Below, in pieces: positions 1-42,500 of a stretch of 42,500 nucleotides of DNA. Made by a program: the position numbers and the translations under genes. The stretch's first letter is position 1. Every line of letters starts with the position of its first letter. Under the pieces are notes generated by a model. It did no database searches, was not told the DNA's origin, and saw only the letters and a list, made by a program, of their open reading frames with translations. This DNA comes from an uncultured Syntrophales bacterium (lineage in GTDB: Bacteria > Desulfobacterota > Syntrophia > Syntrophales > JACQWR01), in the NCBI GenBank assembly GCA_964614365.1, contig CAZTLA010000002.1, positions 1 through 42,500 of the forward strand. Direction: 5' to 3'.

Positions 1-165
1 AAGCATACCCTAAAGGGGTGCCCCAGAAAAGACGGGTTGGTCAGACGCTTACGTTTTCAGCGAGTTGGACCACGGAACCATCAGATTAATACGCCGTTGC
101 TTGAGGCGGGGATGGTTCATCATACCTTGTTTTGTCTTGGCAATGAGTATAGCTTTAACAATTAG
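1..165 (+). CDS. possible 3' end of an unidentified upstream gene (partial, runs off the window)
   Basis: Frame 1 is open from the window edge to TAG at 163-165 (54 codons). It is absent from the ORF track because it is truncated. No family is recognisable. Confidence 0.25.
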   Translation, partial: KHTLKGCPRKDGLVRRLRFQRVGPRNHQINTPLLEAGMVHHTLFCLGNEYSFNN

Positions 166-176
166 GAGGGAATTAT

Positions 177-3461: not shown

Positions 3462-3560
3462 TTTTTCAGTGACTTGAGTTATTGAATACACAATCTTTAT
3501 GGAGCACTATTTGATTTTAAAGGGTTCAAAGAGGTCGCTCGTAAGGGATTCGTAATTGCT

Positions 3561-5054
3561 ATGAAAAGAATCAATAAAGCACTTCTTGTTATCCCACCGG
3601 CATTCACGTTTAAAAATAGTTTGGATATTAATCCGCTTCCTCCCTTAGGGCTGGGTTATATTGCCGCTGTGCTGCAGAATCAGGGCGTGGAAGTGAAGAT
3701 TGTTGATGCTCTTATGATGGGTTGGCATAACAGGATCAAGGTTCATGATAATATCATTAGAATCGGTTTGAATTTTGAGGATATACAGAAAATCATAGAG
3801 GACTATGCGCCGGATATGGTCGGTGTAAATTCCCTATTCACCAAGCAGAGACAAAATGCCCATGAAATTTATCGGTTGGCGAAGAAGGTTGCTCCTAACA
3901 TAGTGACGGTGGCAGGCGGCGCTCATCCGACGGTTTTGCCTGAACTGGTTTTATCCGACGATAATGTTGATTTTGTCGTATTAGGTGAGGGCGAGAAGAC
4001 CATACTTGATATACTGAATATAGTTGAAGGAAGGAAAGAAAATCTTCAACTCGATGGAATTGGATTTAAAGAAAATGGGAAAAACATTCTGATTCCAAAG
4101 ACAAAATTTATTCATGATATTGATGGCATTTCGTTCCCTGCATGGGATGTCATGAATTTGGAAAATTACTTCGGCATGAAAGCCTCTCACGGCGAAAGAC
4201 ATCACGCTCGTTTCATGCCTATTATGACTTCCCGTGGTTGCAGCGCGGGATGCACCTTTTGTTCGGCTCATCGCGTGTGGGGGAGAAAATATCGAATGCG
4301 TTCCCCCGAAAATGTAATAGAGGAAATGCAGCAACTGAAAAACAAATATGGGATTGAGGAACTGATGTTCGAGGATGATAATCTAACCTTGAATATAAAA
4401 CGGGCAGAAAAAATATTTGATTCAATGATTGAGAAAAATCTTAATTTTGCCTGGGATACCCCAAACGGTGCGGCTGCGTTTGCTCTGACTGAATCCACGA
4501 TTATGAAGATGAAGAAAAGTGGTTGTTATCAAATGAATTTAGCGTTGGAGTCCGGAAGCCAATATGTTTTAGACAATATAATAAAAAAGCCCTTAAAATT
4601 ATCCAAAACGAAACCCTTGATAAAATATGCAAAAGAAATAGGGTTGAATACTTCAATATTTCTGGTAGTGGGAATGCCGGGTGAAACACTGGAGCAAATA
4701 AACGAATCCTTTCGTTTAGCCGAAGAATTGGAAACGTATAATCCTCACGTTTCCGTTGCTACTCCTTATCCGGGCACAGAACTCTATGATGTTTGTATTA
4801 AGAACGGCTACATTGACCCCGATTTCGATCTGGATGATCTATTTATCCGCAGTTTTTGTATCACTACTGAAGATTGGAACAGTGACGATTTGAAAAGAAT
4901 TCTGAGGCATGGACGAAGGTATCTACTGAAAGCTAAGTATCGGAAATATCCTCATATGTTGATAGTAGACGCAGTTAAAGGGCTGAAGATTCTTATGCGG
5001 GACCCATTTAGCCTTCCCCAGAAGTTCTTGAGGTTTGTAGGTGCAAAAACCTGA
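3561..5054 (+). CDS. B12-binding-domain radical SAM enzyme
   Basis: 497 aa. It has an N-terminal Rossmann-like cobalamin-binding region (LLVIPP...GLGYIAAVL...VGV) followed by the canonical CxxxCxxC motif (RGCSAGCTFC). Confidence 0.85.
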   Translation: MKRINKALLVIPPAFTFKNSLDINPLPPLGLGYIAAVLQNQGVEVKIVDALMMGWHNRIKVHDNIIRIGLNFEDIQKIIEDYAPDMVGVNSLFTKQRQNAHEIYRLAKKVAPNIVTVAGGAHPTVLPELVLSDDNVDFVVLGEGEKTILDILNIVEGRKENLQLDGIGFKENGKNILIPKTKFIHDIDGISFPAWDVMNLENYFGMKASHGERHHARFMPIMTSRGCSAGCTFCSAHRVWGRKYRMRSPENVIEEMQQLKNKYGIEELMFEDDNLTLNIKRAEKIFDSMIEKNLNFAWDTPNGAAAFALTESTIMKMKKSGCYQMNLALESGSQYVLDNIIKKPLKLSKTKPLIKYAKEIGLNTSIFLVVGMPGETLEQINESFRLAEELETYNPHVSVATPYPGTELYDVCIKNGYIDPDFDLDDLFIRSFCITTEDWNSDDLKRILRHGRRYLLKAKYRKYPHMLIVDAVKGLKILMRDPFSLPQKFLRFVGAKT

Positions 5055-5070
5055 CGATAAGAGTTCTACG

Positions 5071-6258
5071 ATGAAAAATAATATTCGCCTCTCACGTTCT
5101 ATCGTAGGGCAGGCAGAAGCTGAAGCCGTTTCCCGCGTTTTACTCGAGGATGGCTATTTGGGCATGGGCAAGGAGGTCCAAACTTTTGAGGAAGAGATAG
5201 CCAAATTTCTCGAGGTACCCAGAGATTGGGTGATTTGCGTCAATTCAGGAACGGCAGCACTGCACTTGGCCGTACAGACCTTAACTAGACCTGATGATGA
5301 AGTTCTGGTTCAGGCTCTGACGTATGTGGCGTCTTTTCAAGCCATAAAAGCAACAGGTGCGATACCTGTCGCTTGTGAGGTTATTCCTGAAAATATAACC
5401 CTTGACTTGGATGATGCCGCAAAGCGGTTATCGACACGCACAAAAATTGTTATGCCCGTGCATTATGCCAGCAACCCCGGAGATCTCGCTGCAATCTATG
5501 AATTTGCAAAACATCATGGTTTGCGAGTCATTGAAGATGCTGCCCATGCCTTTGGATGTTTATATCATGGCCATAAAATCGGGTCACAAGAACTACTAAA
5601 TCAACTATATGGTAATTCTCCATCAAGCGTAGTTTGTTTTAGTTTTGACGGCATCAAAAATATTACCAGCGGTGAAGGAGGAGTGGTCATTACTCAAGAC
5701 CCCTTTGTTGCCCAGAAGATTCGCGATGCCAGGTTACTAGGCGTGGAACAAGATACAGAGAAGCGTTACTCAGGACAGCGAAGCTGGGAATTTGATGTTC
5801 AGCAGCAGGGGTATCGTTATCATATGAGTAATATATTTGCTGCCATAGGGCGGGTTCAACTACAGCGCCTTTCTAATGAATTCGCGCCAAAACGGAGAGC
5901 ATGGGCCTGCCTATACCGTGCAAAATTGAAATCCATAGCCGGGATCAAATTTCTTCAAAGTGATTTGGATAGTATTATTCCCCATATCCAACCAATACTT
6001 GTTCCGGCAATTCATCGAGATAGCCTTCGACAATACCTTAGCGATAAAGGCATTGAAACAGGCATTCATTACATGCCAAATCATTTGTTGACTTTTTTTG
6101 GCGACCGGAATGATAGGCTCCCCGTGACTGAACAATTATATGAAGAGTTGCTGTCGTTGCCGTTGCATCCAGGCTTAACGGAATCGGATGTAAACTATGT
6201 AATTGATCGAGTATCAGAGTTTGGTGCAGCGACATTCCCTGTCGATGGCAATGACTGA
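5071..6258 (+). CDS. DegT/DnrJ/EryC1/StrS-family PLP-dependent sugar aminotransferase
   Basis: Typical family pattern (NSGTAALHLA, PVHYAS, IEDAAHAFG, SFDGIKNITSGEGG). I place the start at ATG 5071; the ORF-track start at 5041 is a GTG overlapping the upstream gene. Confidence 0.85.
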   Translation: MKNNIRLSRSIVGQAEAEAVSRVLLEDGYLGMGKEVQTFEEEIAKFLEVPRDWVICVNSGTAALHLAVQTLTRPDDEVLVQALTYVASFQAIKATGAIPVACEVIPENITLDLDDAAKRLSTRTKIVMPVHYASNPGDLAAIYEFAKHHGLRVIEDAAHAFGCLYHGHKIGSQELLNQLYGNSPSSVVCFSFDGIKNITSGEGGVVITQDPFVAQKIRDARLLGVEQDTEKRYSGQRSWEFDVQQQGYRYHMSNIFAAIGRVQLQRLSNEFAPKRRAWACLYRAKLKSIAGIKFLQSDLDSIIPHIQPILVPAIHRDSLRQYLSDKGIETGIHYMPNHLLTFFGDRNDRLPVTEQLYEELLSLPLHPGLTESDVNYVIDRVSEFGAATFPVDGND

Positions 6259-7231
6259 GACCAATACAAAAAATTCAGATCAGCCCTCTGCTCATTCATC
6301 ACATTGTCCCAAAGTCGGCATAGTCATGAATTGCTATAATGGGGAAGAATTTCTTCAGGAAGCAATTGATTCCATATATGCCCAAACCTTTATAGATTGG
6401 GAGATAATCTTCTGGGATAACGCATCCGCCGATAGATCGGCTGAGATAGCAAAGAGTTATAATGATGGGAGGATGCGTTACTTCCGATCAAAAAATACCG
6501 TGCCGCTTGGTGAAGCCAGAAATTATGCCATTGAACAACTACGCGGACAGTACATCGCTTTTTTGGATTGTGATGATATATGGCTGCCCGAAAAGCTGAA
6601 TAAGCAGGTTACAATTTTAGAAGAAAAGCCCGGTATTGATTTTATTTACAGCAATTACTTTAAGATAGTTATGCCGAGGGCCGATAAAAGAATTATTGGT
6701 TTGAAAGGAAAACAACCGGAAGGCGATGTGTTTGAAAAGTTCCTGTATCAATATCCCGTAAATCTGCAAACAGTGATTTTTAGAAAAGAGGTTTTGAATA
6801 AGCTCGATTATTTTTTTGATAAAAAGCTTAATTTATCTGAAGAATTTGATCTTTTTATGAGGATTTTCAAGAATTCAACTGTATCATATGAGAGCGAACC
6901 ATCGATTATTACTCGGATACATCGACACATGAGCAGCCTAAGATATGCCAGGGATTATTATGATGAATGCATGTATATAGCGGAGAAGTTTAAAACAGCC
7001 GATAATGATTTTGAGAACAAATATGGGGTGGCTTTACGGTACTTTTACGCGAAAGCAAATTATTATAGAGCACGATCCGAGATGTCGGAATCTAATTCAC
7101 GAAAAGCACGAGAGTGCTTGCGAACATATAAATTTTTGGACATAAAATTCTATGGACTCTATCTCATAACCTATTTGCCGAATATCATATGGCGAATGTT
7201 GCATCGCGCTAAAGACAGAGGTATCATTTAA
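6245..7231 (+). CDS. family-2 glycosyltransferase
   Basis: N-terminal GT2 signature (VGIVMNCYNGEEFLQEAIDSIYAQTF...DNASADRS...FLDCDD). ATG 6245/6251 is the likely start and overlaps the DegT stop. Confidence 0.8.
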   Translation: MAMTETNTKNSDQPSAHSSHCPKVGIVMNCYNGEEFLQEAIDSIYAQTFIDWEIIFWDNASADRSAEIAKSYNDGRMRYFRSKNTVPLGEARNYAIEQLRGQYIAFLDCDDIWLPEKLNKQVTILEEKPGIDFIYSNYFKIVMPRADKRIIGLKGKQPEGDVFEKFLYQYPVNLQTVIFRKEVLNKLDYFFDKKLNLSEEFDLFMRIFKNSTVSYESEPSIITRIHRHMSSLRYARDYYDECMYIAEKFKTADNDFENKYGVALRYFYAKANYYRARSEMSESNSRKARECLRTYKFLDIKFYGLYLITYLPNIIWRMLHRAKDRGII

Positions 7232-7269
7232 TGCAGATAATTAAGGCCGGGAATTGAGAAATTGAAAAG

Positions 7270-8796
7270 ATGATGTATGGGATGACCCCTGAGTTAACAA
7301 AGAAATATAAATGGGTAGTATTCGCTTTATTGGCCATAGTGACGCTATGGCTTATGTGGAATATGCCTGTGTTCCTAAAGTTTGTAGAATTCTTGGGGCA
7401 TAGGATCCCGCAAAAGGACTTACGGGTAGATTATCTTAAGGGGCTTGTATGGGCTATTTTATTGGGGGCAACGATATTTTTCTGGCCGATCCATTCCCAG
7501 GACAGGAAGGCTCTTTTATGGGTATGGTCAGTCAAATGCTTTGTCATGCTTTGCCTCATGCTCTTCTATGAGTACTATTATCAAACAGACGCTTTCGGGT
7601 ATTTTTCAGGGTCAAGGCACAATATCAGCGAGTGGGAAAGAATGGATTTAGCGGGACCATCTTTCGTGGTTGTTTTTATTGCCTGGCTGCATAATCATTC
7701 CTTTGTTGATTCATTCCATGCTACGAAGGTCAGCTTTGGGATGATAGGCTTGGTTGCGATATACATTTTCTATCGCTCTGCAGTGGCTTTTTTGCAACAA
7801 GAAAGGTTAAGCTTGCTATATATCTTTGCGTTCTTTCCTTCAATTCTATTTTGGTCTTCAATATTAGGCAAGGAGCCTATCGTGTTATTAGGTCTATCTG
7901 TTTATTCCTACGGAGTCATAAAATTGTTTAAACATGGCAATGTATCATATGCAGCAATTTTGTTGTTAGGTGTCATTGTTACGGCAACTATACGTATATG
8001 GATGGGATCTATCCTATTATTGCCCGTTTTGATAAGTATCTTTATTAATCTTAAAATAATAAAGCAAAAAGTAACAACTTTATTTATTTTAGTGTTGGCA
8101 TTTTTATTTTCTTTCTATTTGGTCATGCAAACTTTGAATATAAAGTCTAGTGAGGATTTGTCGAACCGGGCAACTCAAACATCGAATAATTTTGCTATAG
8201 GTGGCAGCACGATAAAAGAAACTGCGAGCCGGGAAGCTCAAACTTCAAATAATTTTGCTGGAGGTGGCAGTGAGGTAAAAGAGACTGCAAGCGGAAACAC
8301 GATAAAGGGAATGCCAGATAGGGCATCTGATAGTGAAAATTATTCTGCAAAGAAAGAAAACGCGGGTGAAACGAAAAAAATAAAATATAATAATCTGTGG
8401 GATATGCTGTTATTTGTTCCCTATGGGATGTTTACTGTTCTGTTTAGGCCATTGCCGGGCGAGGTCAATAATATATTTGGCTTCCTCGCAGGGATGGAAG
8501 ATTCATTTTTGTTGATACTGTTTGTTCTTGCGATCAAAAGGGCGCGATGGCAAGAATTGATCGAGCCCCTGTCTATATGGGCTATTTTGCTCATTGTGAT
8601 CTGGGCCGCTGCTTATGCGTTTGTTGGATTTAATCTAGGCACCGTGTGCCGTTATAGATTGCAGATTCTGCCTTTCTTTTTAGGATTATTAATGTATATG
8701 GCTCGGAACCGGGATAGTTCAATAACTTTCGTCCAAACAGAAATTGTACAACAATTTTCAGGTGAAAAAGGTATTGATCGTGAATCGGCTCCTTGA
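7270..8796 (+). CDS. polytopic membrane protein (O-antigen polymerase/ligase-like role inferred from context) with a hydrophilic tandem-repeat loop
   Basis: 508 aa with many hydrophobic segments and a central hydrophilic insert containing a 2 x 21-aa repeat. It sits between the GT2 and the initiating sugar transferase. No specific family motif is recognised. Confidence 0.55.
   Translation: MMYGMTPELTKKYKWVVFALLAIVTLWLMWNMPVFLKFVEFLGHRIPQKDLRVDYLKGLVWAILLGATIFFWPIHSQDRKALLWVWSVKCFVMLCLMLFYEYYYQTDAFGYFSGSRHNISEWERMDLAGPSFVVVFIAWLHNHSFVDSFHATKVSFGMIGLVAIYIFYRSAVAFLQQERLSLLYIFAFFPSILFWSSILGKEPIVLLGLSVYSYGVIKLFKHGNVSYAAILLLGVIVTATIRIWMGSILLLPVLISIFINLKIIKQKVTTLFILVLAFLFSFYLVMQTLNIKSSEDLSNRATQTSNNFAIGGSTIKETASREAQTSNNFAGGGSEVKETASGNTIKGMPDRASDSENYSAKKENAGETKKIKYNNLWDMLLFVPYGMFTVLFRPLPGEVNNIFGFLAGMEDSFLLILFVLAIKRARWQELIEPLSIWAILLIVIWAAAYAFVGFNLGTVCRYRLQILPFFLGLLMYMARNRDSSITFVQTEIVQQFSGEKGIDRESAP
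8166..8291 (+). repeat. 2 x 63-bp in-frame tandem repeat inside the membrane-protein gene
   Basis: Copy 1 is 8166-8228 and copy 2 is 8229-8291. They encode (R)ATQTSNNFAIGGSTIKETAS / REAQTSNNFAGGGSEVKETAS. Confidence 0.85.
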
Positions 8797-9340
8797 CGTT
8801 GTAATAGCACTAGTCCTTATCGTATCGTGCGGCATTCCCATGCTGGTCATTGCGGCTCTGATAAAATTGACTTCGCGTGGACCGGCTTTGTACTGGTCCG
8901 ATCGGGTTGGGAAAGACAACGTGATTTTCAAGATGCCCAAGTTCCGGACCATGCGCATCGATACCCCGCCGGTGGCGACCCATCTTCTGGAAAATCCCGG
9001 TGCCTACCTCACACGGGTAGGATCGTATCTCCGAAAGTTCAGTCTTGACGAGTTGCCGCAATTGTGGAGTATAGTAAAAGGCGACATGACCTTTGTCGGT
9101 CCCCGGCCCGCCCTCTACAACCAGGAGGACCTGATTCGTCTCCGCACCGGAAAGGGAATACAGAGCCTTACCCCGGGAGTCACCGGCTGGGCGCAGATAA
9201 ACGGCAGGGACACAATACCGATCCCGCTGAAAGTGGAGCTGGACGATTACTACCTGCGAAACAAATCGTTATTATTTGATATGAAGATACTCTGGATGAC
9301 GCTCATTAAAGTATTGAGAGCGGAAGATGTGAAGCACTGA
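8744..9340 (+). CDS. undecaprenyl-phosphate sugar phosphotransferase (small PglC/WbaP-C-type bacterial sugar transferase)
   Basis: RLLDVVIAL.L......P...I....KL.S.GP.LY...RVG.....F...KFRTM, DELPQL.N...G.M..VGPRP and the C-terminal KP.LTG.AQ pattern are all present. The real start may be GTG 8762. G+C content rises sharply at this gene. Confidence 0.85.
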   Translation: MYNNFQVKKVLIVNRLLDVVIALVLIVSCGIPMLVIAALIKLTSRGPALYWSDRVGKDNVIFKMPKFRTMRIDTPPVATHLLENPGAYLTRVGSYLRKFSLDELPQLWSIVKGDMTFVGPRPALYNQEDLIRLRTGKGIQSLTPGVTGWAQINGRDTIPIPLKVELDDYYLRNKSLLFDMKILWMTLIKVLRAEDVKH

Positions 9341-9347
9341 TGCCGGT

Positions 9348-11246
9348 ATGAACCCTCAATTAAGAAACCCTAAATTATACCTGATGCTCGTAAGTGATGC
9401 GCTGCTCTTTGCGCTTGCTCTCGGGGGGTCTTACCTCCTTCGGTTTGAGCTTGTCCTGGGGCATCCGGAGATCGTTCAGTTCGGCGCTGCGCTTATCTGG
9501 CTTGTGCCCATGAAGCTTGCCGTCTTTTTTTCCTTCGGTCTTTACCGGGGCATGTGGCGATATACGAGTGTGCGGGACTTCTGGCACCTGGCCCAGGCAT
9601 CGTTTTTCTCGATGTTTTTGGCTATGGCTGTTATCCTTTTTCTGTATCGATTCCAGGGATTTTCCCGCGCCGTATTCATGCTGGACGGGGTGCTTACGTT
9701 CCTCTTTACGGGAGCTTTGCGGATGGGTATCCGCTCCTATTTTTCTCTTAAAGACCAAAACAGAACGGACCATGCATTTATCGGTGCGGGGAAGAAGCGC
9801 AGACGAGTTTTGATTGTCGGTGCCGGCAACGCCGGCGAGAAGATCTTGCGGGAGATATTCGACAATTATCAACTCTGTTACGAGGTGGCGGGCTTTGTTG
9901 ATGACAACCCCCAGAAACAGGGACGATCGATGCATGGGGTTCCCGTCCTTGGACCTGTGCAGGCCCTGCCGCGTCTCACGGGGGATACGGGCGTCCAGGA
10001 GGTCCTTATCGCCATTCCCTCAGCCTCCGGCGACCAGATGCGCCGGATCGTTGACATCTGCAAGGAATGCAACGTTCCCTATAAGACGCTGCCCGGGATA
10101 GGCGAGATTATCAATGGCAGTGCGAGCGTAAAGATTCTGCGGGACGTGAGTTATCAGGACCTGCTGGGAAGGTCGCCGGTCCGGCTCGACGTTTTGGGGA
10201 TCAGGGAGTATATCGACGGCCGCACCGTTCTCATTACGGGTTGCGGCGGGTCCATCGGCTCCGAACTGTGCCGTCAGGTGGTGCGCTTTCAACCCCGCTC
10301 CATGGTTCTGCTGGATGCAAGCGAGGCCAATCTTTTCCAGATCCAGATGGAGCTGCAGCATGAGATGTACTACCTGAATCACCACGCCATCCTGGGACAG
10401 GTGCAGGACAGGACACTGATGCAGGACGTATTCAGAAAGTATCGCCCCCAGGTCGTGTTTCATGCTGCCGCGTATAAGCACGTCCCCATGCTGGAAAAAA
10501 ACCCCTGGGAGGCCGTTTCCAACAACATCGAGGGGAGCCGGGTCGCCATGGAGGTTGCCCTGGAAAACAAGGCGGAGCGCTTCGTTCTCGTTTCCACCGA
10601 CAAAGCGGTGCGTCCCACCAATGTCATGGGGGCGAGCAAGCGCATTACCGAGATCATGCTCCAGTCGTTCCAGGGCAATGGGACGCGGTTCATGGCGGTG
10701 CGCTTCGGCAATGTGATCGGTTCTTCGGGCTCCGTGATGCCGCTCTTTCGGCGGCAGATAGAACTGGGGGGTCCCGTGACGGTGACCCATCCCGATGTTA
10801 CCCGTTACTTTATGACCATTCCCGAAGCGGCCCAGCTGATCATCCAGGCCGGCGCCAGCAGGGGTGGGGATATATTCGTGCTTGAGATGGGGACGCCCGT
10901 CAGGATCGCCGATATGGCGAGGGATCTGATCCGGCTTTCGGGCAAGGAACCGGACAAGGATATCAGGATCGTGTTTATCGGTCTCAGGGAGGGAGAGAAA
11001 CTGCACGAGGAACTCATTACAAGCGGAGAAAGCATTGCCCAGACGGGACACGAAAAGATCATGGTGCTGAACTCTGAAGGTGCCGTCAACGGATTGAAAG
11101 ATCCGACGGCGCTGCGGGCTTGGCTGAAACCACGCCTGGAGCAGTTATCCGAAGCAGCGTTGCATCATGATGCGATAGCGGTGAAGATGAAAATGCGGGA
11201 CATCGCCCCTGAGTATATGCCTCAGGAGACGGAATATGTTCTCTAA
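9348..11246 (+). CDS. membrane-anchored polysaccharide biosynthesis protein CapD/PglF/WbpM type (UDP-sugar 4,6-dehydratase)
   Basis: 632 aa. Four N-terminal TM helices are followed by two Rossmann domains (VLIVGAGNAG; VLITGCGGSIGSEL; AAAYKHVP; STDKAV.P.N.MGASKR). Confidence 0.9.
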   Translation: MNPQLRNPKLYLMLVSDALLFALALGGSYLLRFELVLGHPEIVQFGAALIWLVPMKLAVFFSFGLYRGMWRYTSVRDFWHLAQASFFSMFLAMAVILFLYRFQGFSRAVFMLDGVLTFLFTGALRMGIRSYFSLKDQNRTDHAFIGAGKKRRRVLIVGAGNAGEKILREIFDNYQLCYEVAGFVDDNPQKQGRSMHGVPVLGPVQALPRLTGDTGVQEVLIAIPSASGDQMRRIVDICKECNVPYKTLPGIGEIINGSASVKILRDVSYQDLLGRSPVRLDVLGIREYIDGRTVLITGCGGSIGSELCRQVVRFQPRSMVLLDASEANLFQIQMELQHEMYYLNHHAILGQVQDRTLMQDVFRKYRPQVVFHAAAYKHVPMLEKNPWEAVSNNIEGSRVAMEVALENKAERFVLVSTDKAVRPTNVMGASKRITEIMLQSFQGNGTRFMAVRFGNVIGSSGSVMPLFRRQIELGGPVTVTHPDVTRYFMTIPEAAQLIIQAGASRGGDIFVLEMGTPVRIADMARDLIRLSGKEPDKDIRIVFIGLREGEKLHEELITSGESIAQTGHEKIMVLNSEGAVNGLKDPTALRAWLKPRLEQLSEAALHHDAIAVKMKMRDIAPEYMPQETEYVL

Positions 11247-35751: not shown

Positions 35752-35810
35752 CGGAGCAGGAAAATAGTCGTTGCGGGGAGTGCCTCGCAAGCCGCGCCTT
35801 CAAAGGCGGG

Positions 35811-35840
35811 GAACCTGATTCCTCTCTGGAGGAATCAGGT
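35811..35840. other. perfect 13-bp stem / 4-nt loop hairpin between the leuD-like gene and the second tctC
   Basis: AACCTGATTCCTC-TCTG-GAGGAATCAGGTT, with no following T-tract. Confidence 0.6.
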
Positions 35841-35868
35841 TATGAATAACGAAATCAGGAGGTAGCTT

Positions 35869-36882
35869 ATGAAAAAATGCACCCTATTGCCTTTGATCGG
35901 GTTGTTTGTTCTGTCACTGTCATTGTATCCCTTTCGTCTCTTTGCGGCTGCGGCCCCCTTCTACGAAGGCAAGGTAATCAACATAGTTGTCGGTTATAAC
36001 CCCGGCGGAGGCTACGATCGCGTGGCCCGTCTGCTTGCCAAACATCTCTCCAAACACATCCCGGGGAAACCGGCCGTTATCGTTCAAAACATGCCCGGCG
36101 CCAGCAGCATGATCGCCACCAATCATGTGTATAATATTGCCAAGCCGAACGGTCTTACGATCGGCGCTATAGACCGGGGACTCGCTTTTGCCCAGTTGCT
36201 GAAGGCGGAGGGCGGCAAGTTTGATCTGAGAAAATTTGCCTGGATAGGGTCGGCGGCGGTAGAGAGCACGGTATTGATTGTGCGAAGCGAACTGCCGTAC
36301 AAGACCGTTGATGATCTTGCCAAGGCGAAATCGCCGGTCATGATCGGTAACTTGGGCCTTGCCAATAACAGCACCCATTTCCTTGTTTTCCAGAAGGAAT
36401 TTCTCGGTTACAATTATAAATTCATATCCTATCCTGCCGCCGCCGATGCCATGCTGGCTCTCGAAAGAAAAGAGATAGACGGCATGGGGGTCGCTTACAG
36501 CACGGCCAAACTGTTAATAGACAGAGGCACGGCGCGCCCCTTGATTCGAGGGCGCGTATCCGAGGCCGGAATTGAAAATTTGCCTGTGGACGAAGACCTT
36601 GCCAGGGACAGCAAGGCAAAAACGCTTATGGCCATGCGTTCCGCGCCCGACCGGATGGGACGGCCCTACGTGCTTCCCCCGGGAACGCCGGAGGCGGTGA
36701 TGAGCATATTACGAAACGCCTTTGCCAAGGTCATGAAAGACCCGGCCCTGCAGGAAGATGCCAAAAACAATAAAATGACACTGGAATACGTGCCTGACCG
36801 GGAAGTGCAAAAATTGCTGGAGTATATTCTCAACCAGCCGCCGGAGATGGTAAACGAATTTGCCAAATATATAAAACTTTAA
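35869..36882 (+). CDS. second TctC/Bug-family periplasmic substrate-binding protein
   Basis: 337 aa with a signal peptide and the same family architecture as 26222-27187, but clearly divergent in sequence. Confidence 0.75.
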   Translation: MKKCTLLPLIGLFVLSLSLYPFRLFAAAAPFYEGKVINIVVGYNPGGGYDRVARLLAKHLSKHIPGKPAVIVQNMPGASSMIATNHVYNIAKPNGLTIGAIDRGLAFAQLLKAEGGKFDLRKFAWIGSAAVESTVLIVRSELPYKTVDDLAKAKSPVMIGNLGLANNSTHFLVFQKEFLGYNYKFISYPAAADAMLALERKEIDGMGVAYSTAKLLIDRGTARPLIRGRVSEAGIENLPVDEDLARDSKAKTLMAMRSAPDRMGRPYVLPPGTPEAVMSILRNAFAKVMKDPALQEDAKNNKMTLEYVPDREVQKLLEYILNQPPEMVNEFAKYIKL

Positions 36883-36920
36883 GGGAGAGCTTCAACAGAC
36901 ATCATGGCAAAATCTCCCCT

Positions 36921-36970
36921 CCCTCTCTTTGCCAAAGAGGGACATGATTCCTCCCTTTGGAAAAGGGAGG
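36921..36970 (+). repeat. double-hairpin repeat (CCCTCTCTTTGCCAAAGAGGG ... CCTCCCTTTGGAAAAGGGAGG), left member of an inverted pair
   Basis: Its reverse complement aligns with 38536-38583 with about 6 mismatches by hand. It lies between tctC2 and the SDH-alpha-like gene. Confidence 0.7.
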
Positions 36971-36985
36971 GGGGGGAGGGATTTT

Positions 36986-38524
36986 ATGGATCACTACCGT
37001 CGTTATTATGAGCCTACTAAGGATCTGCTGTATAAAACCGAGTTCAACAGGTGGACAACACCCGGTGAGGACGAGACCATGAAAAAAGACGGTTATTTTG
37101 AAATTTTGATCGAAGGGATCAGGAAGGCGGCCCCGAAGGGGAAGAAGCTTACCCTGGGAGAGATCATAGCCCTGGCCCAACGGCTGGATGTCAGGGTAAG
37201 CGACATCGTGATCGCGGAAGCGATGGATGCGCATGCCCTTAGTTGCGATAAGGTGATTGAGGCCGTTCTCGGCGCCTTCAGTTCCAACCTGCTCGCGCTG
37301 GAGATCGGCCTTACGAAGGGCAACAGCTTTCTTTTGGGAACGATCGGTAGCGAACTGGCCGCGATACGGAAGAAGAAACCTGCCCTCATTGGAGATAGCT
37401 TCATAGATAAGGCCATGGTTTACACCCTCGCCACGGAAGTGGGAAACCACGAAGTGGGCTTGCAGCCCTGCGCGGGGACGGGCGATTCCTGCGTGTACAC
37501 GGGGCTTATGAAGGCGCTTAAGGAAACGAGGATTTCCCGGCGGAAGCTGGGGCAGATTGCCGCTCTGATCGTCAAGGTCGGCCTCTTCTTCAAGGAAGGG
37601 AAGAAAACCACCGGCTGCAACATGGAGGGTTTCGGTGCGGGTGCAGCCTGCACCGCCGCCGCCCTCACGGAGCTTCGGGGCGGCTCGCCCGAGCAGGTGG
37701 CGAAGGCCATCGTGCTTGCCATCTCCCCCACGGTTGCCGTACCCTGCACGCCGCGGGTCATCGTCTCCGGCCTCTGCGCCACCCACATCGGCGGGGCGAT
37801 ACTCATCGGGAACCTCGCCGCGAACCTCGCCCTCAAGACCTCCATCTCTGTCGCTATTGATGTGGACGTCATGCTTGCCATGACCGCCAAGATTCATGCG
37901 ACGGCGGCGCCCGTTATCACGGGCATCAATCTCGAGTACATGCGCCCCTATTTTAAAACGGAACCGGTCATTGACGGGTTCGTTTCCGGAGTAGTCTGCG
38001 ATGAAGAAAAGGAAAGCTCCGCGCGAATCGTTTCCCGCGCCCGCGAGGAGGTGCGGGCGTTTGCCGAGAGCGCCAATCCCCTCATCAGTCCTTTCGGGGA
38101 AGCGGTGGTGGGAGGAAGCAGTATCGCCGTCGGTTCTCCCACGAACATGGGGCGCGTCGCCCACGAACTGATAGCGGGCAAGATCAAGAAGATCACCATT
38201 GAACTAACCACCGACCTTTTTGCCCGGCGGGCCATCAACGTGCCCGGCATCCTGATGGGAGCGGTCCTCGGCGCATCCACCAAAGACATCAAGGCCTACC
38301 ACGGCATCCTCAAGGAAGTCGCCCGGCAGGGAATCATCGTCAAAATCAAACAGGTAAACGAACCGGAAGTCCAGCGGATAACCATCGAAGCCGCCGGCAA
38401 AAGCGCCTTTGTCGACGCCCTGAACCGGGGCGGGGGACGGTTGAAACTGGTAGATGCCCGTCCCTCTCTGGCGGAAGCCAAAAATGCTGCCGAACGACTG
38501 GGCATCAAGCTTGCCGAGGTTTAA
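36986..38524 (+). CDS. serine-dehydratase-alpha-like (SDH_alpha / UPF0597-type Fe-S hydro-lyase family) protein with extra N- and C-terminal regions
   Basis: VYTLATEVGNHEVGLQPCAGTGDS and GC.MEGFGAGAA.TAAAL.EL.GG.PEQ...A..LA......VPC.P......LC parallel the SdaAA patterns (E.NA..G.IV.APTAGS; GCQ.E.G.A..MAA.......G). The start is set at ATG 36986, because the longer track ORF begins inside the repeat. Confidence 0.55.
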   Translation: MDHYRRYYEPTKDLLYKTEFNRWTTPGEDETMKKDGYFEILIEGIRKAAPKGKKLTLGEIIALAQRLDVRVSDIVIAEAMDAHALSCDKVIEAVLGAFSSNLLALEIGLTKGNSFLLGTIGSELAAIRKKKPALIGDSFIDKAMVYTLATEVGNHEVGLQPCAGTGDSCVYTGLMKALKETRISRRKLGQIAALIVKVGLFFKEGKKTTGCNMEGFGAGAACTAAALTELRGGSPEQVAKAIVLAISPTVAVPCTPRVIVSGLCATHIGGAILIGNLAANLALKTSISVAIDVDVMLAMTAKIHATAAPVITGINLEYMRPYFKTEPVIDGFVSGVVCDEEKESSARIVSRAREEVRAFAESANPLISPFGEAVVGGSSIAVGSPTNMGRVAHELIAGKIKKITIELTTDLFARRAINVPGILMGAVLGASTKDIKAYHGILKEVARQGIIVKIKQVNEPEVQRITIEAAGKSAFVDALNRGGGRLKLVDARPSLAEAKNAAERLGIKLAEV

Positions 38525-38535
38525 GATTAAACATT

Positions 38536-38583
38536 TCCTTCCTTTTCCAAAGGGAAAAAATAATGCCCCTCTTTGGCAAAGAG
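38536..38583 (-). repeat. right member of the inverted double-hairpin repeat pair
   Basis: TCCTTCCTTTTCCAAAGGGAAAAAATAATGCCCCTCTTTGGCAAAGAG, the inverted counterpart of 36921-36970. Confidence 0.7.
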
Positions 38584-38601
38584 CAATGTCTTTACAAGAC
38601 T

Positions 38602-38674
38602 GTCATTTCGAGCAACGCGAGAAATCTTAATGATTATGCATGCTAAAAAGATATCTCCCGTTGGTCGATATGAC
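38602..38674. repeat. long imperfect palindrome (27-nt arms, 4 mismatches)
   Basis: GTCATTTCGAGCAACGCGAGAAATCTT (38602-38628) pairs with AAGATATCTCCCGTTGGTCGATATGAC (38648-38674). The loop contains ATGCAT. Confidence 0.75.
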
Positions 38675-38712
38675 ATGTTCTTGCTGAAACACCACACTAT
38701 GTTGCTGCTGTC

Positions 38713-38754
38713 ATACCCGCCCCCGCCTGCGCGGGGGTAAACTCCGGCGGGTAT
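38713..38754. repeat. nested GC-rich hairpin element
   Basis: The outer stem is ATACCCGCC / GGCGGGTAT and the inner stem is CCCCGC-CTGC-GCGGGG. Confidence 0.7.
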
Positions 38755-38806
38755 CCAGACGCTGTCCCCGCACCCTATCGCAGTTTTCCCTAAACCCATA
38801 AAATCT

Positions 38807-38835
38807 TTGACAAACAAAGTATGATGTGGTTTAGT
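38807..38835 (+). promoter_or_regulatory. sigma70-like promoter candidate (TTGACA-N17-TTTAGT) facing the gene-module array
   Basis: Perfect -35 hexamer at 38807-38812, 17-nt spacer, and a 4/6 -10 hexamer at 38830-38835. It lies about 270 nt upstream of the first module. Confidence 0.35.
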
Positions 38836-39102
38836 CATCCACCGATTCAGTTCCAAACCTTCACAACACTTTGAGGAGTATAGGAATGACCGAGTTGAAA
38901 ACACCACTCACCCCTGTTTTCAAAGATCGGACGCCCCTATCGTTCCTACCGACAGTCCCTGCCGTTCCGTCGTCTCAACGAACTCACATTCTATTAGGGG
39001 GACACCATATAGAAAATCCCTTTAACGAGGAGGGAAAAATGCTTTATCTCTTTTTGTAAGATGAAGAATTTCAGCTTCATTCTAAAATGAACAGGGGGTT
39101 TT

Positions 39103-39462
39103 ATGCCAGAACGAACAAAAGCCATGATAGAAGAGGCGGGTTTTACATGTACTCAGAAAGAGCACGAGTTTCTTGTCCGATCATCTAACAAGGACCCCGA
39201 CACTTTTTTCGTGGTTGCTTCCGGTCTATACTCTTCCAAAATTCTGGAACGTTCGTTGGCAAAACACGCAGAAGCTCTCGTGAAGTCGGCTGAAGCATCG
39301 GAGAAATATACGGTTGCTCTTGTAAGATCGGCTGAAGCCTCAGAAAAGCACACCGCCAACCTTACCCGCGCAACATGGATATTAGCCGCAGCAACTGTCG
39401 GCCTTCTTGTTGCAACAATAGTGCTGGTTTTTGTTACCGCAGCAAGCGGTTGCAGCGGGTAG
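39103..39462 (+). CDS. hypothetical tail-anchored membrane protein (module 1)
   Basis: 119 aa with an AGGGGG RBS, an internal 2 x 14-aa repeat and a C-terminal TM helix (WILAAATVGLLVATIVLVFV). The 3' end runs into repeat copy A. Confidence 0.55.
   Translation: MPERTKAMIEEAGFTCTQKEHEFLVRSSNKDPDTFFVVASGLYSSKILERSLAKHAEALVKSAEASEKYTVALVRSAEASEKHTANLTRATWILAAATVGLLVATIVLVFVTAASGCSG
39274..39357 (+). repeat. 2 x 42-bp in-frame tandem repeat (ALVKSAEASEKYTV / ALVRSAEASEKHTA)
   Basis: Copies at 39274-39315 and 39316-39357, aligned by hand. Confidence 0.75.
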
Positions 39463-39510
39463 CCGTTCCCATGAGCATACTTGCGCGTATGTCAGTCGCC
39501 GATCAGCGAC
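39443..39510 (+). repeat. GC-rich structured inter-module repeat, copy A (most diverged)
   Basis: CAAGCGGTTGCAGCGGGTAGCCGTTCCCATGAGCATACTTGCGCGTATGTCAGTCGCCGATCAGCGAC aligns with the 71-nt cores of copies B-D. Confidence 0.7.
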
Positions 39511-39526
39511 ATTGAGCTATTTTAAA

Positions 39527-40252
39527 ATGAACGATTACGTGATATTTAAATTTACAAAAATTGATAAAAACACCTTGAAGTCTCTGGTGAATAGCGAGCT
39601 TTATTTTGCTCGCCCTGATCACCTAAATGACCCATTCGATTGTCGAGTTGATATTCTCGCTTCTCTTGAAAATGCTATTTCGAGAGCCACTGGGCCAACG
39701 CGCAATACATTGGAACAACTTCGGGAAGACATTAATATAGAGAAGATTAAAACCGATCTTGAGAACTTTGGAGTATGTTCATTTTCTCTCGAACTCAAAA
39801 ATACATTGATGTGGTCTCATTACGCTGATGCTCACCACGGTGTCTGCCTTACGTATGCCTTACCAAAATCTTTCTTTGATGAAAATGTCAAAGAAATCAT
39901 TGGAATTGTCAAAGTCGATTACGGGCTTAATCCTTTATCCGATTGGTTTCTACAGGAAGCACTTAAACCTACCCCATTGAAGGACTTCATACTATTCTTA
40001 ATTAAAAAAGCTCTTACTGTCAAAGCCAAGTTATGGGAATATGAGGAAGAAGTTAGAATTGTGCGACAGAAGGAAGGTGTCCAAGTTATAGATAAGCAGT
40101 ATTTAAAACAAATTTGCTTTGGTCTTGCAACTCCTGATTCTGATATTACGTTACTGAAAAATATTATTAGGCAATGTGGCTATAAAGTTGACTTGTGCAG
40201 GATGATACGTAGCACGTCAAGTGATTTTGGACTTGAATCAATAGAAATATAA
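39527..40252 (+). CDS. DUF2971-family protein (module 2)
   Basis: The N-terminal pattern K....L.SL.N.ELYFARPD.LNDPFDC is the DUF2971 hallmark. The start is set at ATG 39527, because the track ORF start at 39431 lies inside repeat A. Confidence 0.75.
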   Translation: MNDYVIFKFTKIDKNTLKSLVNSELYFARPDHLNDPFDCRVDILASLENAISRATGPTRNTLEQLREDINIEKIKTDLENFGVCSFSLELKNTLMWSHYADAHHGVCLTYALPKSFFDENVKEIIGIVKVDYGLNPLSDWFLQEALKPTPLKDFILFLIKKALTVKAKLWEYEEEVRIVRQKEGVQVIDKQYLKQICFGLATPDSDITLLKNIIRQCGYKVDLCRMIRSTSSDFGLESIEI

Positions 40253-40329
40253 CATTATTCCTCACCTCGCTGACGTGCCGCTGTGCTCCATGCTGGGGAA
40301 GGGTCAGGTCTTGGGTCTTGAATAGAGAA

Positions 40330-40359
40330 GCCGACTATCTACAGCGTCGGCCGATTTTC
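40330..40359 (+). terminator. weak hairpin plus short T-tract downstream of the DUF2971 gene
   Basis: GCCGAC-N10-GTCGGC followed by CGATTTTCG. The 6-bp stem makes this only a marginal terminator. Confidence 0.25.
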
Positions 40360-40365
40360 GCTGTT

Positions 40366-40510
40366 GGCACGGACGTTGCGCGCCGCGCCATCGGGGCTGC
40401 GAATTGCCCCCACTTTCTGTCCGGCTCTTCGCGCCTGGTCATCAAGCGGTTGCAGCGGGCAGCCATCCCCGCAAGCACGCTCGCGTGTCCGCTATCCGCT
40501 GATCCGCAGC
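40366..40510 (+). repeat. GC-rich structured inter-module repeat, copy B (extended, with a partial left-arm duplication)
   Basis: 40366-40392 resembles the left arm of copy D. 40396-40439 resembles the left arm of copy C. The 71-nt core is 40440-40510 (CATCAAGCGGTTGCAGCGGGCAGCC...CCGCTGATCCGCAGC). Confidence 0.85.
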
Positions 40511-40541
40511 GTAGATCTGAAAAATGAAAAGATAACAGAAG

Positions 40542-40886
40542 ATGAAAAAGCGGCTTCGCAAAAAGAAACACCATGGTGAATTCACCGAGTGGGGACGGCA
40601 ACTCTTCGTTAGGAGAAATCGGAAGGACGGATTCGATGAGTTCCTTGACTCCTTCATCGAGCAAGCCATCGAGGCAAACGGATGCTACTGCGGCGGAGGC
40701 GGGAAGGAAGACAAACTGGACGTGCTACTGGAGCTCGGGCGTCGCTCGGACGATCCTGCTGCGAGGCTAAAGAAGATCGCGGCATGGCTCGATGCTCGTC
40801 CTGATGTGGAGAGCTGGAGGACGAGCGAAGAGTTCGACGTATGGCACGGGGTCTTCCAGGATATTGGCGACAAGATTGAACAATAG
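40542..40886 (+). CDS. YggL-like (DUF469) protein (module 3)
   Basis: 114 aa. The N-terminal KKRLRKKKHHGEFTEWG matches the RRLRKK.H..EF.E.G pattern of the YggL 50S-binding protein family. Confidence 0.65.
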   Translation: MKKRLRKKKHHGEFTEWGRQLFVRRNRKDGFDEFLDSFIEQAIEANGCYCGGGGKEDKLDVLLELGRRSDDPAARLKKIAAWLDARPDVESWRTSEEFDVWHGVFQDIGDKIEQ

Positions 40887-40934
40887 CGTAAATCCGAACG
40901 GTGAAAAATGCGTCTGTTTCCATTGGGCTTTGGT

Positions 40935-41050
40935 GCGGCGAATTGCCATCCGCTTTCTGTCCCGGCGCACCGCGCCGGTCCATCAAGCGGCTGCTGCGGT
41001 CAGCCACCCCCACGAGTACGCTCGCGTGTACGTCAGCCGCTGATCCGCGG
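40935..41050 (+). repeat. GC-rich structured inter-module repeat, copy C
   Basis: Left arm 40935-40980 (GCGGCGAATTGCC...CTTTCTGTCC...) plus core 40981-41050. It differs from copy D at about 8/71 core positions. Confidence 0.85.
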
Positions 41051-41115
41051 CCCCGCTATGTGCTCGCAAAAATTCATATTTTATGATACTCAAAAACATC
41101 AATGGAGGTATCATT

Positions 41116-41328
41116 ATGAGTTTAACAGAGACAATTATTAAGGATGTACAAGCATTGTCAGAATCGAAACAGATAGAAGTTCTTGATTTTGTACAATACC
41201 TTCGCTCAAAGGCAGAAAAACAGGAGATAAACTATTGGGCAGATTTTTCCTTATCTTCTGCGATACGAGGGATGGAGGACGAACAAGCTCCGTATTCACT
41301 CGATGATATTAAGGAATCATTTTCATGA
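41116..41328 (+). CDS. DUF2281-like type II antitoxin (module 4, first gene)
   Basis: The L.E..Q.EVLDFV.YL..K pattern is present. GGAGG lies 7 nt upstream of ATG 41116. An ATGA overlap with the toxin start (41325-41328) is typical of TA coupling. Confidence 0.65.
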   Translation: MSLTETIIKDVQALSESKQIEVLDFVQYLRSKAEKQEINYWADFSLSSAIRGMEDEQAPYSLDDIKESFS

Positions 41329-41677
41329 TTGCCGAGTCACAGATTGTACTTTTCAGATTACCTCAAACAGATCAAACAGAAGCAAAGCTTCGCCCTGCCC
41401 TCGTACTTCGTCGATTACCTGGCCAATATAACGATTGGATAATTTGCATGATATCGTCACACCTCCATCAAGAAATTCCTGACTTTGATGAAGTTATCAC
41501 TCCCACTGATTCAGATTTCCAACAGTCTGGTTTGAAGTTAAGTTAGCAAGCGTCATCAGAATTAGCAGACTTGCAGTAGTTAATAGCGATGTTCTCTTGG
41601 GGAAATTAGGCCAAATTGATACTCAGCGTCTGTCTCGCATACAACAAAGATTGGCAAATTGGATACAAGGCACATAA
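41325..41677 (+). pseudogene. PemK/MazF-family toxin gene disrupted by a 5-bp tandem duplication (AGTTA AGTTA, 41536-41545)
   Basis: The track ORF stops at 41546. The -1 frame continues as ASVIRISRLAVVNSDVLLGKLGQIDTQRLSRIQQRLANWIQGT* up to TAA 41675-41677. Removing one AGTTA restores a 115-aa MazF-sized protein (..PALVL....DWIICMISS..........SDFQQSGLKLASVIRISRL). Confidence 0.75.
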
Positions 41678-41727
41678 CCATTCGCTCCGGCGGACGGCGA
41701 GAAAAAGCGCTCCCCCTGAGCTTGGGC

Positions 41728-41825
41728 GATGGCGCGGACGCTTCGCGCCGCGCCATCAAGCGGCTGCAGCGGGCAGCCGTCCCCGCGAGCACGCTCGCGA
41801 GTACGTCAGCCGCTGATCCGCAGCC
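41728..41825 (+). repeat. GC-rich structured inter-module repeat, copy D
   Basis: Left-arm hairpin GATGGCGCGG-N10-CCGCGCCATC (41728-41757) plus core 41754-41825. Confidence 0.85.
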
Positions 41826-41857
41826 CCGTTCGCTTGTAATCAAAGGAGGATTGTCAA

Positions 41858-42500
41858 ATGTTTTGGATTGCATTGGCAATACTGATAATTGTTGGCTGGA
41901 TTATCTACTTAAGACGGAAAGGCAGCGTCACGCTTACTAAAGATCAAGCAGAAATGGTTGTGGGATTATGCCGCAAAGAGAAGACCGAAATAGAAAAGAA
42001 AATGCAAGACATGGTTGATGAGAGTGCGATTCAAGAGGGAACGGTAACAGTGGATAGCCTTTGCAAAGAAACCGCAGATATGTCTGAAGATGTGAAACAG
42101 GGGATCATAAGGTTCAAACAGGGGTTGCTTGATAAATATGGACCAGCCATTCCCGTCAATACTGCTCACAGAATTTCGTGGGAATTGGAAGGTAACGGTC
42201 AGATGTGGAGCGATGGTCCTGGATGTTTTGAGCGGCATCTCCAGAGAAGGGAAGGAAATCTCCTGTTCCCACCGGGACGTAGGATTGTGACCCGCAAAGA
42301 AATAGAGGAGGCGTGCGAAAAAGATAGGAAGGAACAAGAATATTTCTGCAAAAAAGTAGATGAGCTGGCAAGTCAAATGCAAAACTTAGGAAAAATACCA
42401 ATTGGTCAAGTGTCAACTCTTTTACAAAACATCCAATCTTTAATGGAAGAGGCTGCATCAATAGGTGGCGAGGCGTTACACAAAATATCTCATCTGGAAA
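41858..42500 (+). CDS. hypothetical N-terminally membrane-anchored protein (module 5, partial, runs off the window)
   Basis: AAGGAGG (41843-41849) lies 8 nt upstream of ATG 41858. Frame 2 is open for all 214 codons to the window end, which I translated by hand: MFWIALAILIIVGWIIYLRRKG.... It is missing from the ORF track because no stop is reached. Confidence 0.7.
   Translation, partial: MFWIALAILIIVGWIIYLRRKGSVTLTKDQAEMVVGLCRKEKTEIEKKMQDMVDESAIQEGTVTVDSLCKETADMSEDVKQGIIRFKQGLLDKYGPAIPVNTAHRISWELEGNGQMWSDGPGCFERHLQRREGNLLFPPGRRIVTRKEIEEACEKDRKEQEYFCKKVDELASQMQNLGKIPIGQVSTLLQNIQSLMEEAASIGGEALHKISHLE

Follow-up and report, generated by a model that had tools for sequence, protein, structure and literature searches.

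A probable decaying integron array in a Syntrophales contig, interspersed with eroded copies of a gene-less mini-cassette

The end of a 42.5-kb stretch of DNA from an uncultured Syntrophales bacterium (contig CAZTLA010000002.1, positions 1 to 42,500; the whole stretch is hereafter the window) raises the question of what a structured repeat is doing between successive small genes. In the array region, the last 3.4 kb of the window, four plus-strand copies (A to D) of a repeat rich in guanine and cytosine (GC) lie between five plus-strand gene modules, as a first-pass annotation of the sequence had described, with boundaries close to ours. That annotation took the region for an integron-like array with the repeat as the attC recombination site of each module or, alternatively, for an undescribed kind of modular gene array. 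We consider it highly probable that positions 38.5–42.5 kb are the visible part of a decaying chromosomal integron cassette array and that the repeats are eroded, gene-less mini-cassettes. The array would resemble a CALIN (cluster of attC sites lacking integron-integrase), a common category defined for IntegronFinder (Cury et al. 2016, PMC4889954). The integron interpretation is right in kind: homologues of the repeat occur in co-oriented arrays downstream of bona fide integrases, with G|TT junctions (the bar marks the crossover point). The repeat is not, in contrast, the modules' own attC, since related gene cassettes keep an attC of their own, and an undescribed kind of array is unneeded.

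An 18-nt core pattern of the repeat (at most three mismatches) matches the window four times, all at 39.4–41.8 kb, where 0.12 matches are expected by chance, and has no match in the remaining 39 kb. The four copies, all on one strand, are spaced 541–1000 nt apart and terminate 17–66 nt ahead of the next start codon. Over 72 core positions, copies B and D differ at 9 and copies C and D at 8, in line with the earlier hand count of about 8, and copy A, already recognized as more diverged, differs from the others at 17–22. The repeats have a GC content of 61–75%. Four modules are AT-rich as first described (37–48% GC); the YggL module is not, at 55%, the value of the upstream chromosome.

A degenerate core pattern was scanned over one genome per species and the metagenomes of the Joint Genome Institute, followed by nhmmer profile filtering, which gave 204 copies in 144 loci; the wider set comprises about 230 related loci. 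Beyond the window, the repeat takes the form of a discrete unit of 149–155 nt with sharp ends, present in up to five copies per 5 kb. In each of the 43 multi-copy loci all copies share one strand, and their starts lie a median of 1334 nt apart. Among the 65 distinct full-length sequences, the median pairwise identity is 90%; copies are 97.4% identical within arrays and 90.9% between arrays (medians), and the higher within-array value fits local multiplication or gene conversion. Hosts identified on long contigs are one Chlorobiota metagenome-assembled genome (MAG), several Deltaproteobacteria/Thermodesulfobacteriota MAGs and one complete Thermodesulfobacteriota genome. The mini-cassette family is spread over at least two phyla, with near-identical copies in other phyla, and labels from further phyla on short contigs may reflect mis-binning. 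No copies were found in sequenced plasmids or phages.

These arrays are linked to integrases. Integrase genes were located next to related arrays by tblastn, and the two proteins scanned against the NCBIfam model TIGR02249 'integron integrase', from loci L192 and L130, score 472 and 479 bits (cutoff 265). In 16 of the 18 loci with an IntI-like match, intI lies upstream of the copies and is co-oriented with them, the known 'inverted integron-integrase' arrangement (PMC4889954). In ten of these loci the element begins 138–154 nt past the intI stop codon, the first cassette position.

The ends of the unit fall on the crossover point. A G precedes each of the 65 distinct full-length copies, of which 63 begin ATGGCKCGG and two TTGGC. 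The unit ends ...GATCCGCAGCGCCG, where conservation stops and the consensus of the attC R' box comes next: the 3′ flanks (n = 144) read G in 115, T in 125 and T in 113, then R, G/T, R and Y, and TT follows 57 of the 65 distinct copies. The left family junction is accordingly written ...G|ATGGCKCGG, in rare copies G|TTGGC, and the right one ...GCAGCGCCG|TTRRRY, also given as GCGCCG|TTRRRY. In the other eight distinct full-length copies (for example L066:1554, L029 and L007), AT follows in place of TT (ATGGG, ATGGC, ATGCT). At L066 this AT is the start of a mini-cassette of a second family, described below, and the remaining cases may be further cassettes of the G|AT type. Recombination in class 1 integrons tolerates a change at position two or three of GTT in one of the partner sites (PMC2811028), and the unusual G|AT half-site is compatible with such tolerance.

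The same HEPN/MNT genes lie upstream in the orthologous integrons L192 and L130, whose IntI proteins are 96% identical. The two attI regions align up to ...GTCTAAACAWTG; past this point L130 continues with G|TTAGCC and an open reading frame (ORF) cassette, and L192 with G|ATGGCTCGG..., the element itself, which ends ...GCAGCGCCG|TTCGAC. Homology therefore breaks exactly at the integrase crossover point. In other places the element follows a gene-cassette attC, one textbook example directly upstream of it reading GCCTAAC-ATTGC-GCTCAAC...GGTTAGC-TTTAC-G|. An R'' box with a hairpin lies upstream of 66% of distinct copies versus 22% of random controls (p = 1e-22). The junction most often lies 60–120 nt past the preceding stop codon, which is the length of an attC, and no ORF directly adjoins the element among the related loci. 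The same neighbours also occur with or without it. A 200-nt cassette end shared by L168 and L225 at 100% identity leads into the element in the first and into TTAGAC in the second, several attI flanks continue with either the element or ordinary TTRRRY cassettes, and several downstream cassettes are preceded by either the element or an ordinary attC end. Because its ends coincide with the crossover point and its neighbours occur with or without it, the element is a separate non-coding cassette. It is not the attC of the neighbouring genes, because related gene cassettes have a variable attC of their own and the element is also found by itself after attI.

The element has no coding signal. Lengths of the distinct copies are mixed modulo 3 (37/19/9), frames are broken by 1-nt indels, internal stops occur in 35 of the 63 copies that start with ATG, and no frame is open in every copy. 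A coding function, a candidate prompted by the ATG start, was rejected on the mixed lengths and internal stops. The consensus fold has 46 pairs, six of them with compensatory changes, and includes a 5′ hairpin (P1, TGGCK.GG / CC.MGCCA) and a closing stem (P2, GCGCTGC / GCAGCGC) around two sub-hairpins; the compensatory changes fall in P1 (UA 43, GC 15, AU 4) and in two P2 pairs.

We compared this anatomy with a canonical attC, taken as R''(RYYYAAC)-spacer-L''...L'-spacer-R'(GTTRRRY), 57–141 nt long, with extrahelical bases and an unpaired central spacer. If circularized, the element would offer an R''-like box (MGCCATC), 5-nt spacers and complementary L arms in the right geometry. Read as a cassette, it would run from the right half of an R' box (WTGGCK) through ~16 nt of cargo to the R''-like MGCCATC and a 5-nt spacer, and then through an L''-like arm, a branched interior of ~110 nt, an L'-like arm and a second 5-nt spacer to the final G. 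We infer that the element is almost entirely its own recombination site.

A second mini-cassette family of ~134 nt, distantly related, has the same layout: G|ATGGGCCGCC-loop-GGCGGCCCATC, a long closing stem, then G|TT. The motif GGCC(C)ATCAA(C/G)CGG is common to this family 2 and the core of family 1. In the L134 copy, G|AT at the start has become G|TT and CCCATC in the partner box has become CCCAAC, so that the two changes compensate each other across the crossover.

In intact integrons the unit sits exactly at the crossover point, after attI or after an ordinary gene-cassette attC. When circularized, its two ends would form one continuous stem of 18–22 bp with the crossover point mid-stem, the predicted circular junction being ...GATCCGCAGCGCCG|ATGGCKCGGACGC..., and the integron integrase would excise and re-insert the unit like any cassette. 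Since it has no gene of its own and is multiplied within arrays, the mini-cassette most likely lives on integrons as a selfish passenger.

Against this family, the window copies are worn (Table 1). All four profile scores fall below the family minimum of 144 bits (median 188). Copy B starts G|TTGGCACGG and ends GCAGCGTAG|AT, and its mismatches to the consensus fall in stems P1, P2 and P3. The left junctions of copies B (G|TTGGCA) and D (G|ATGGCG) both fit a cassette boundary. On the right, the R' box is GTT (GTTCGCT) in D, GAT in B, GCT in C and unrecognizable in A. The GAT flank of copy B is also seen in 16 of the 144 family flanks, the junction of copy C is mutated (CCCCG|CTATG), and that of copy D, CCCCG|TTCGCT, stands at the canonical position. 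Copy D has lost 49 nt internally, between two GCCATC repeats, and its bottom strand folds at z = −4.4. The ORF of module 1 reads into copy A, and copies A and C adjoin their genes without a clearly recognizable separate attC.

Two modules retain a probable or attC-like site ahead of the repeat. In the DUF2971 module, an R''-like ATATAAC overlaps the stop codon and is followed by a weak hairpin region and ...GGCCGATT-TTCGCT-G at the junction; the site folds weakly (−12 kcal/mol), and its stop-to-junction distance of 111 nt is inside the 60–120 nt typical of the family. In the toxin-antitoxin module, an R''-like ACATAAC over the stop is followed by a 5-nt spacer, an imperfect hairpin, a 6-nt spacer (TTGGGC) and the junction G41728, about 51 nt from the toxin stop and directly ahead of copy D, a layout that matches canonical attCs upstream of family copies elsewhere.

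Table 1 Features of the array region and of the related loci
Feature	Position	Strand	Description
Left flank	38528-39102		lineage-specific, non-coding
Module 1	39103-39462	+	119-aa ORF, hydrophobic C-terminal segment; 3′ end enters copy A
Copy A	39440-39514	+	mini-cassette remnant, strongly diverged, 3′ core only; 45 bits against the full profile
Module 2	39527-40252	+	DUF2971 protein, 241 aa; PF11185 35.6 bits; 36.8% GC
Probable degraded attC of DUF2971 cassette	40247-40363	+	from sequence geometry
Copy B	40364-40514	+	full-length mini-cassette; 136 bits; 84% identity to consensus
Module 3	40542-40886	+	YggL-like protein, 114 aa; PF04320 54.8 bits
Copy C	40942-41055	+	mini-cassette without 5′ hairpin P1; 114 bits, aligned to 130/153 consensus positions
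Module 4a	41116-41328	+	DUF2281/VapB-like antitoxin, 70 aa; PF10047 25.4 bits (cutoff 26.5)
Module 4b	41325-41677	+	MazF/PemK toxin pseudogene
attC-like site of toxin-antitoxin cassette	41672-41728	+	from sequence geometry; weak bottom-strand hairpin
Copy D	41729-41828	+	P1 intact, G|ATGGCGCGG... start; 79 bits
Module 5	41858-42500	+	ORF with hydrophobic N-terminal segment, runs off window end
Family 2 mini-cassettes	L118:1758-1891, 2891-3024, 3803-3941; L134:623-755; L066:1554-1687		second family, ~134 nt
RF01699 sub-threshold matches	L192:4604-4729; L168:1-123	-	bottom strand of mini-cassette

The five modules would then be gene cassettes, and the repeats would mark former cassette boundaries in an array that lost, or never had, its integrase. 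As the first-pass annotation had noted, the window holds no integrase: tblastn with IntI1 and with the validated IntI of L192 found nothing in the 42.5 kb, and blastn with attI together with tblastn with IntI found no remnant of either attI or intI in the window, the left flank included. The 5′ side of the window array, the position of intI in 16 of the 18 related loci, is occupied by a conserved housekeeping gene. We interpret the array as decayed because its copies are truncated or mutated, three of the four right-hand R' boxes are not GTT, the MazF gene is frameshifted, and neither intI nor attI is present; it is probably no longer mobile.

A separate case of integrase loss may be visible in L049, a Chlorobiota MAG contig, in which only a 24-aa fragment of an integrase C terminus (4178–4249, minus strand) is detectable ahead of an attI-like junction, between mini-cassette copies at 3847–4000 and 5284–5356. 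This suggests an intI pseudogene or remnant beside a still well-conserved array.

Several observations weigh against the reading of the window as a decayed integron array and of the unit as an integrase-mobilized cassette. Our attC calls rest on motifs, folding and homology rather than on an attC covariance model. A rule-based attC scanner (R''/R' boxes plus bottom-strand folding) found nothing on the plus strand of the window; it failed to discriminate between strands (34 hits versus 24 on the opposite strand) and was discarded. The integrase search covers the window to position 42500, and an integrase may lie beyond it or elsewhere in the genome. The related loci were chosen for containing the element, so that first-position frequencies are biased. 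Precise empty sites matching on both flanks number 0 of 87, and mobility is therefore deduced from exact junctions and one-sided sharing of flanks. The unit also departs from a canonical attC in its length of 149–155 nt, in the GAT half-site of 63 of the 65 distinct copies and in its fully paired central spacers, and the family 1 fold has no clear extrahelical bases. Lastly, a folded-strand test by wobble asymmetry (top-strand G.T 31 versus C.A 15) weakly favours the top strand.

The window array is like CALINs in its co-oriented, small, promoterless genes with a toxin-antitoxin pair, in units less than 4 kb apart on one strand with no intI nearby, and in the foreign composition of the region and its absence from close relatives. 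It is unlike them in that its sites are degraded and its most conspicuous repeat is a separate gene-less cassette rather than the attC of the genes.

The closest precedent for the mini-cassette is found in the arrays of Vibrio, where Boucher et al. (2006) described highly paralogous, conserved families of non-coding cassettes in up to 45 copies (PMC1382264) and proposed for them a selfish role or one as promoter or RNA (PMC1382264). Like these families, the mini-cassette is gene-less, occurs in many copies per array, exceeds 80% nucleotide identity between hosts and shows no coding signal. The Vibrio families have no homologues outside vibrios, whereas the mini-cassette occurs in Chlorobiota and in Deltaproteobacteria/Thermodesulfobacteriota MAGs. 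It further differs from them in its link to co-oriented integrases, in its length of ~154 nt with ~16 nt that are not attC, and in beginning G|AT rather than G|TT. The mini-cassette family is new and unusually small.

Cassettes that lack an ORF or gene and have promoter or small RNA (sRNA) activity are documented in the oral integrons of Treponema, the superintegrons of Vibrionaceae and in Xanthomonas (PMC6557892, PMC11014356, PMC8876359). They resemble the mini-cassette in being non-coding, in having normal cassette junctions and in sometimes taking the first position, and the Treponema integrase can likewise be co-oriented with its array. In contrast to them, the mini-cassette has no detected promoter-like sequence, is GC-rich, much shorter and highly repeated, and is conserved across hosts.

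Such cassettes bear on a competing explanation, possible but unlikely in our estimate, in which the element is retained because it is useful, whether as an insulator or attenuator after intI, an mRNA stabilizer, an sRNA or a good attC that mobilizes its neighbours. A median identity of 90% across very different hosts and compensatory changes that preserve stems would suit a function, but stem conservation is equally expected of a recombination site. The first position after a co-oriented intI, seen in ten loci, would also suit it, but an excess there is expected as well from frequent re-integration at attI, and the sample is biased. Promoter or sRNA functions of gene-less cassettes have precedent (PMC8876359, PMC11014356), and Boucher et al. 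raised the same alternative for the Vibrio non-coding cassettes (PMC1382264). The window copies, however, have no sigma-70-like promoter or intrinsic terminator beyond chance, and they are decaying, so they are not under selection there.

An architectural resemblance of the bottom strand to an orphan four-stem RNA, Clostridiales-1, falls on the side of function, at a sub-threshold level. The window has no Rfam family at gathering level. RF01699 (Clostridiales-1 RNA) aligns over its whole length with the bottom strand of the mini-cassette, at a score of 37.2 bits (gathering score 48) and E = 8e-7 to 3e-5. Shared with Clostridiales-1 (Weinberg et al. 2010, PMC2864571) are a closing stem, a hairpin with a GCUUGC loop, a second hairpin domain and junction bases; unlike it, the mini-cassette alignment has many non-canonical pairs. 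Real members have a higher AT content and are found in gut Clostridiales, where they follow intrinsic terminators rather than occupying cassette junctions. Membership of Clostridiales-1 was rejected after a check against the original alignment, and because the contexts of real members differ, we regard the likeness as resemblance only. A short sub-threshold match to Acido-Lenti-1 covers the CCCGGCGCUGACGCGCCAGG hairpin of the mini-cassette.

A bolder extension of the mini-cassette reading, which we rate as very unlikely, would make the 154-nt unit and its 134-nt relative an unrecognized class of 'attC-only' mini-cassettes, portable sites that parasitize integrons of several phyla and, inserted beside genes or beside cassettes whose attC is poor, could supply a working attC. 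The adjacency of copies A and C to genes lacking a recognizable attC of their own gives a faint hint in this direction. If true, it would provide a candidate route to create or re-mobilize gene cassettes; how these arise is a question of long standing. Genes with the element as their only attC were looked for in the wider sample, and this use of the element was rejected: the apparent cases were all spurious ORFs running through a real attC.

It is highly improbable that the repeat merely serves each neighbouring gene cassette as its attC, with module and repeat forming one cassette and the site conserved in a species-typical manner as are the Vibrio cholerae repeats (VCRs). Each copy does lie 3′ of a gene module, co-oriented, GC-rich and structured, the right end of the family is a canonical R' box, and in the window a separate attC is not clearly recognizable where copies A and C adjoin their genes. 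The VCRs (~120 nt, with a branched, variable terminal structure) are likewise long, sequence-conserved, branched sites repeated along an array. They are, however, the attC of each gene cassette, whereas the mini-cassette is an extra, independent cassette beside diverse gene attCs. Related arrays have a full, variable attC (R'', hairpin, spacer, G) between gene and element; the element occurs alone right after attI, with the homology break exactly at G|; and an identical gene cassette with its attC is found with or without the element.

An origin as a miniature, non-autonomous derivative of the IS1111-attC group of insertion sequences, or as another miniature inverted-repeat transposable element (MITE), moved by a transposase guided by a seekRNA or bridge RNA, is extremely unlikely. 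IS1111-attC elements enter attC sites at one end, always at the same place and in the same orientation (PMC11187229), and the mini-cassette, which is about the size of such guide RNAs and highly structured, resembles them and the group IIC-attC introns in its fixed position and orientation within cassette arrays. Those elements carry a transposase and seekRNA, or a reverse transcriptase and ribozyme, and neither inserts at the G|TT crossover; the mini-cassette, unlike both, has no ORF, and its ends are the crossover points. Both ends match the IntI crossover to the base (G| ... G|TT), and the element is found at attI as well as attC. No transposase-carrying version turned up in about 230 loci, among which no DEDD-transposase profile search was made, and there are no plasmid or phage matches. 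The second family, with the same R'-half/R''/L''-L'/G layout and a compensatory change across the crossover, also speaks against such an origin.

Finally, a generic intergenic repeat of the genome, of the repetitive extragenic palindromic (REP) or bacterial interspersed mosaic element type, whose co-orientation in the window would be coincidental, is scarcely credible: the repeat is indeed GC-rich, palindromic and intergenic, and other REP-like hairpins lie just upstream (38720–38770), but the remaining 39 kb of the window contains no copies, 43 of 43 multi-copy loci are strictly co-oriented, and copies are linked to intI and attI and recur nearly identically in other phyla.

On the preferred account, a recombination site has turned into a cassette of its own, abundant in environmental integrons with a co-oriented integrase and often first after attI. 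If true, the mini-cassette would be a minimal natural substrate on which to study what an integron integrase needs to excise and insert DNA, and a clean example of a selfish element living on integrons. For annotation, sites called as tandem attCs or as a conserved 'attC' repeat in a metagenomic array may turn out to be gene-less cassettes in their own right.

The genes of the window array form an accessory island of a DUF2971 protein, a YggL-like protein, a dead toxin-antitoxin pair and two membrane proteins. The names first given to them were borne out by Pfam for DUF2971 and YggL; DUF2281 falls just under its cutoff, with a weak NF050009 match as well, and MazF exists only as a frameshifted pseudogene. 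A tandem AAGTT duplication (41535–41544) frameshifts the MazF/PemK gene and creates a TAG at 41544–41546. Because the full-length PF02452 match (50.7 bits, positions 4–108 of 109) appears only after removal of the 5-nt AAGTT, we classify the toxin as a pseudogene. The DUF2281/VapB-like ORF upstream of it is intact, leaving a dead toxin beside a surviving antitoxin. The ORF of module 1 has no Pfam or NCBIfam match and that of module 5 no Pfam match; their hydrophobic termini were read directly from the translations. A Logan contig (L001, 1015 nt) is identical to window positions 40297–41311.

The region is also variable among relatives; close relatives lack it entirely. The array begins just past a serine-dehydratase-like gene, and the names of homologous proteins point to a probable Thermodesulfobacteriota-type genome. 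Homology to loci L234, L235 and L236 ends at the stop codon of the serine-dehydratase-like gene (38524–38527). The gene in those relatives is 88–95% identical to that of the window, no array follows it, and the 88% relative (L234/L235) has a convergent HMGL-like gene where the window has the array. Because homology is lost at the stop of the flanking gene and no array is present, the region is accessory and variable. The sigma-70-like promoter proposed at 38807–38835 was not reported by a consensus promoter scan, and promoter and terminator counts in the array region are at chance level.

Further features surround the serine-dehydratase-like gene. Inverted repeats of 47 nt (79% complementary; 36925–36971 and 38537–38583) flank it, the right arm sitting in lineage-specific DNA just past the end of homology to the relatives. 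A REP-like hairpin, GTCATWCCCGC...GCGGGWATCC, follows the gene in the window (38720–38770) and also, amid different surrounding sequence, in the 95%-identical L236 (1940–1978); it is probably a generic repeat of the host with no relation to the cassette repeat. On the other side, L234 (4446–9132) and L237 (5396–10004) have a five-gene block for a branched-chain-type ABC transporter, placed between the gene for the aconitase small subunit and the serine-dehydratase-like gene, and the window has instead, at 35752–36928, a single 337-aa ORF (35869–36882) with no family match. The neighbourhood is therefore rearranged on both sides of the gene. At the far end, window positions 1–9000 have a low GC content (about 41%, versus about 55% for the rest of the window) and encode a B12-binding radical SAM protein and several ORFs without a family match; with a polysaccharide-biosynthesis gene adjoining at 9348–11246, this is probably a separate accessory island for surface polysaccharide.

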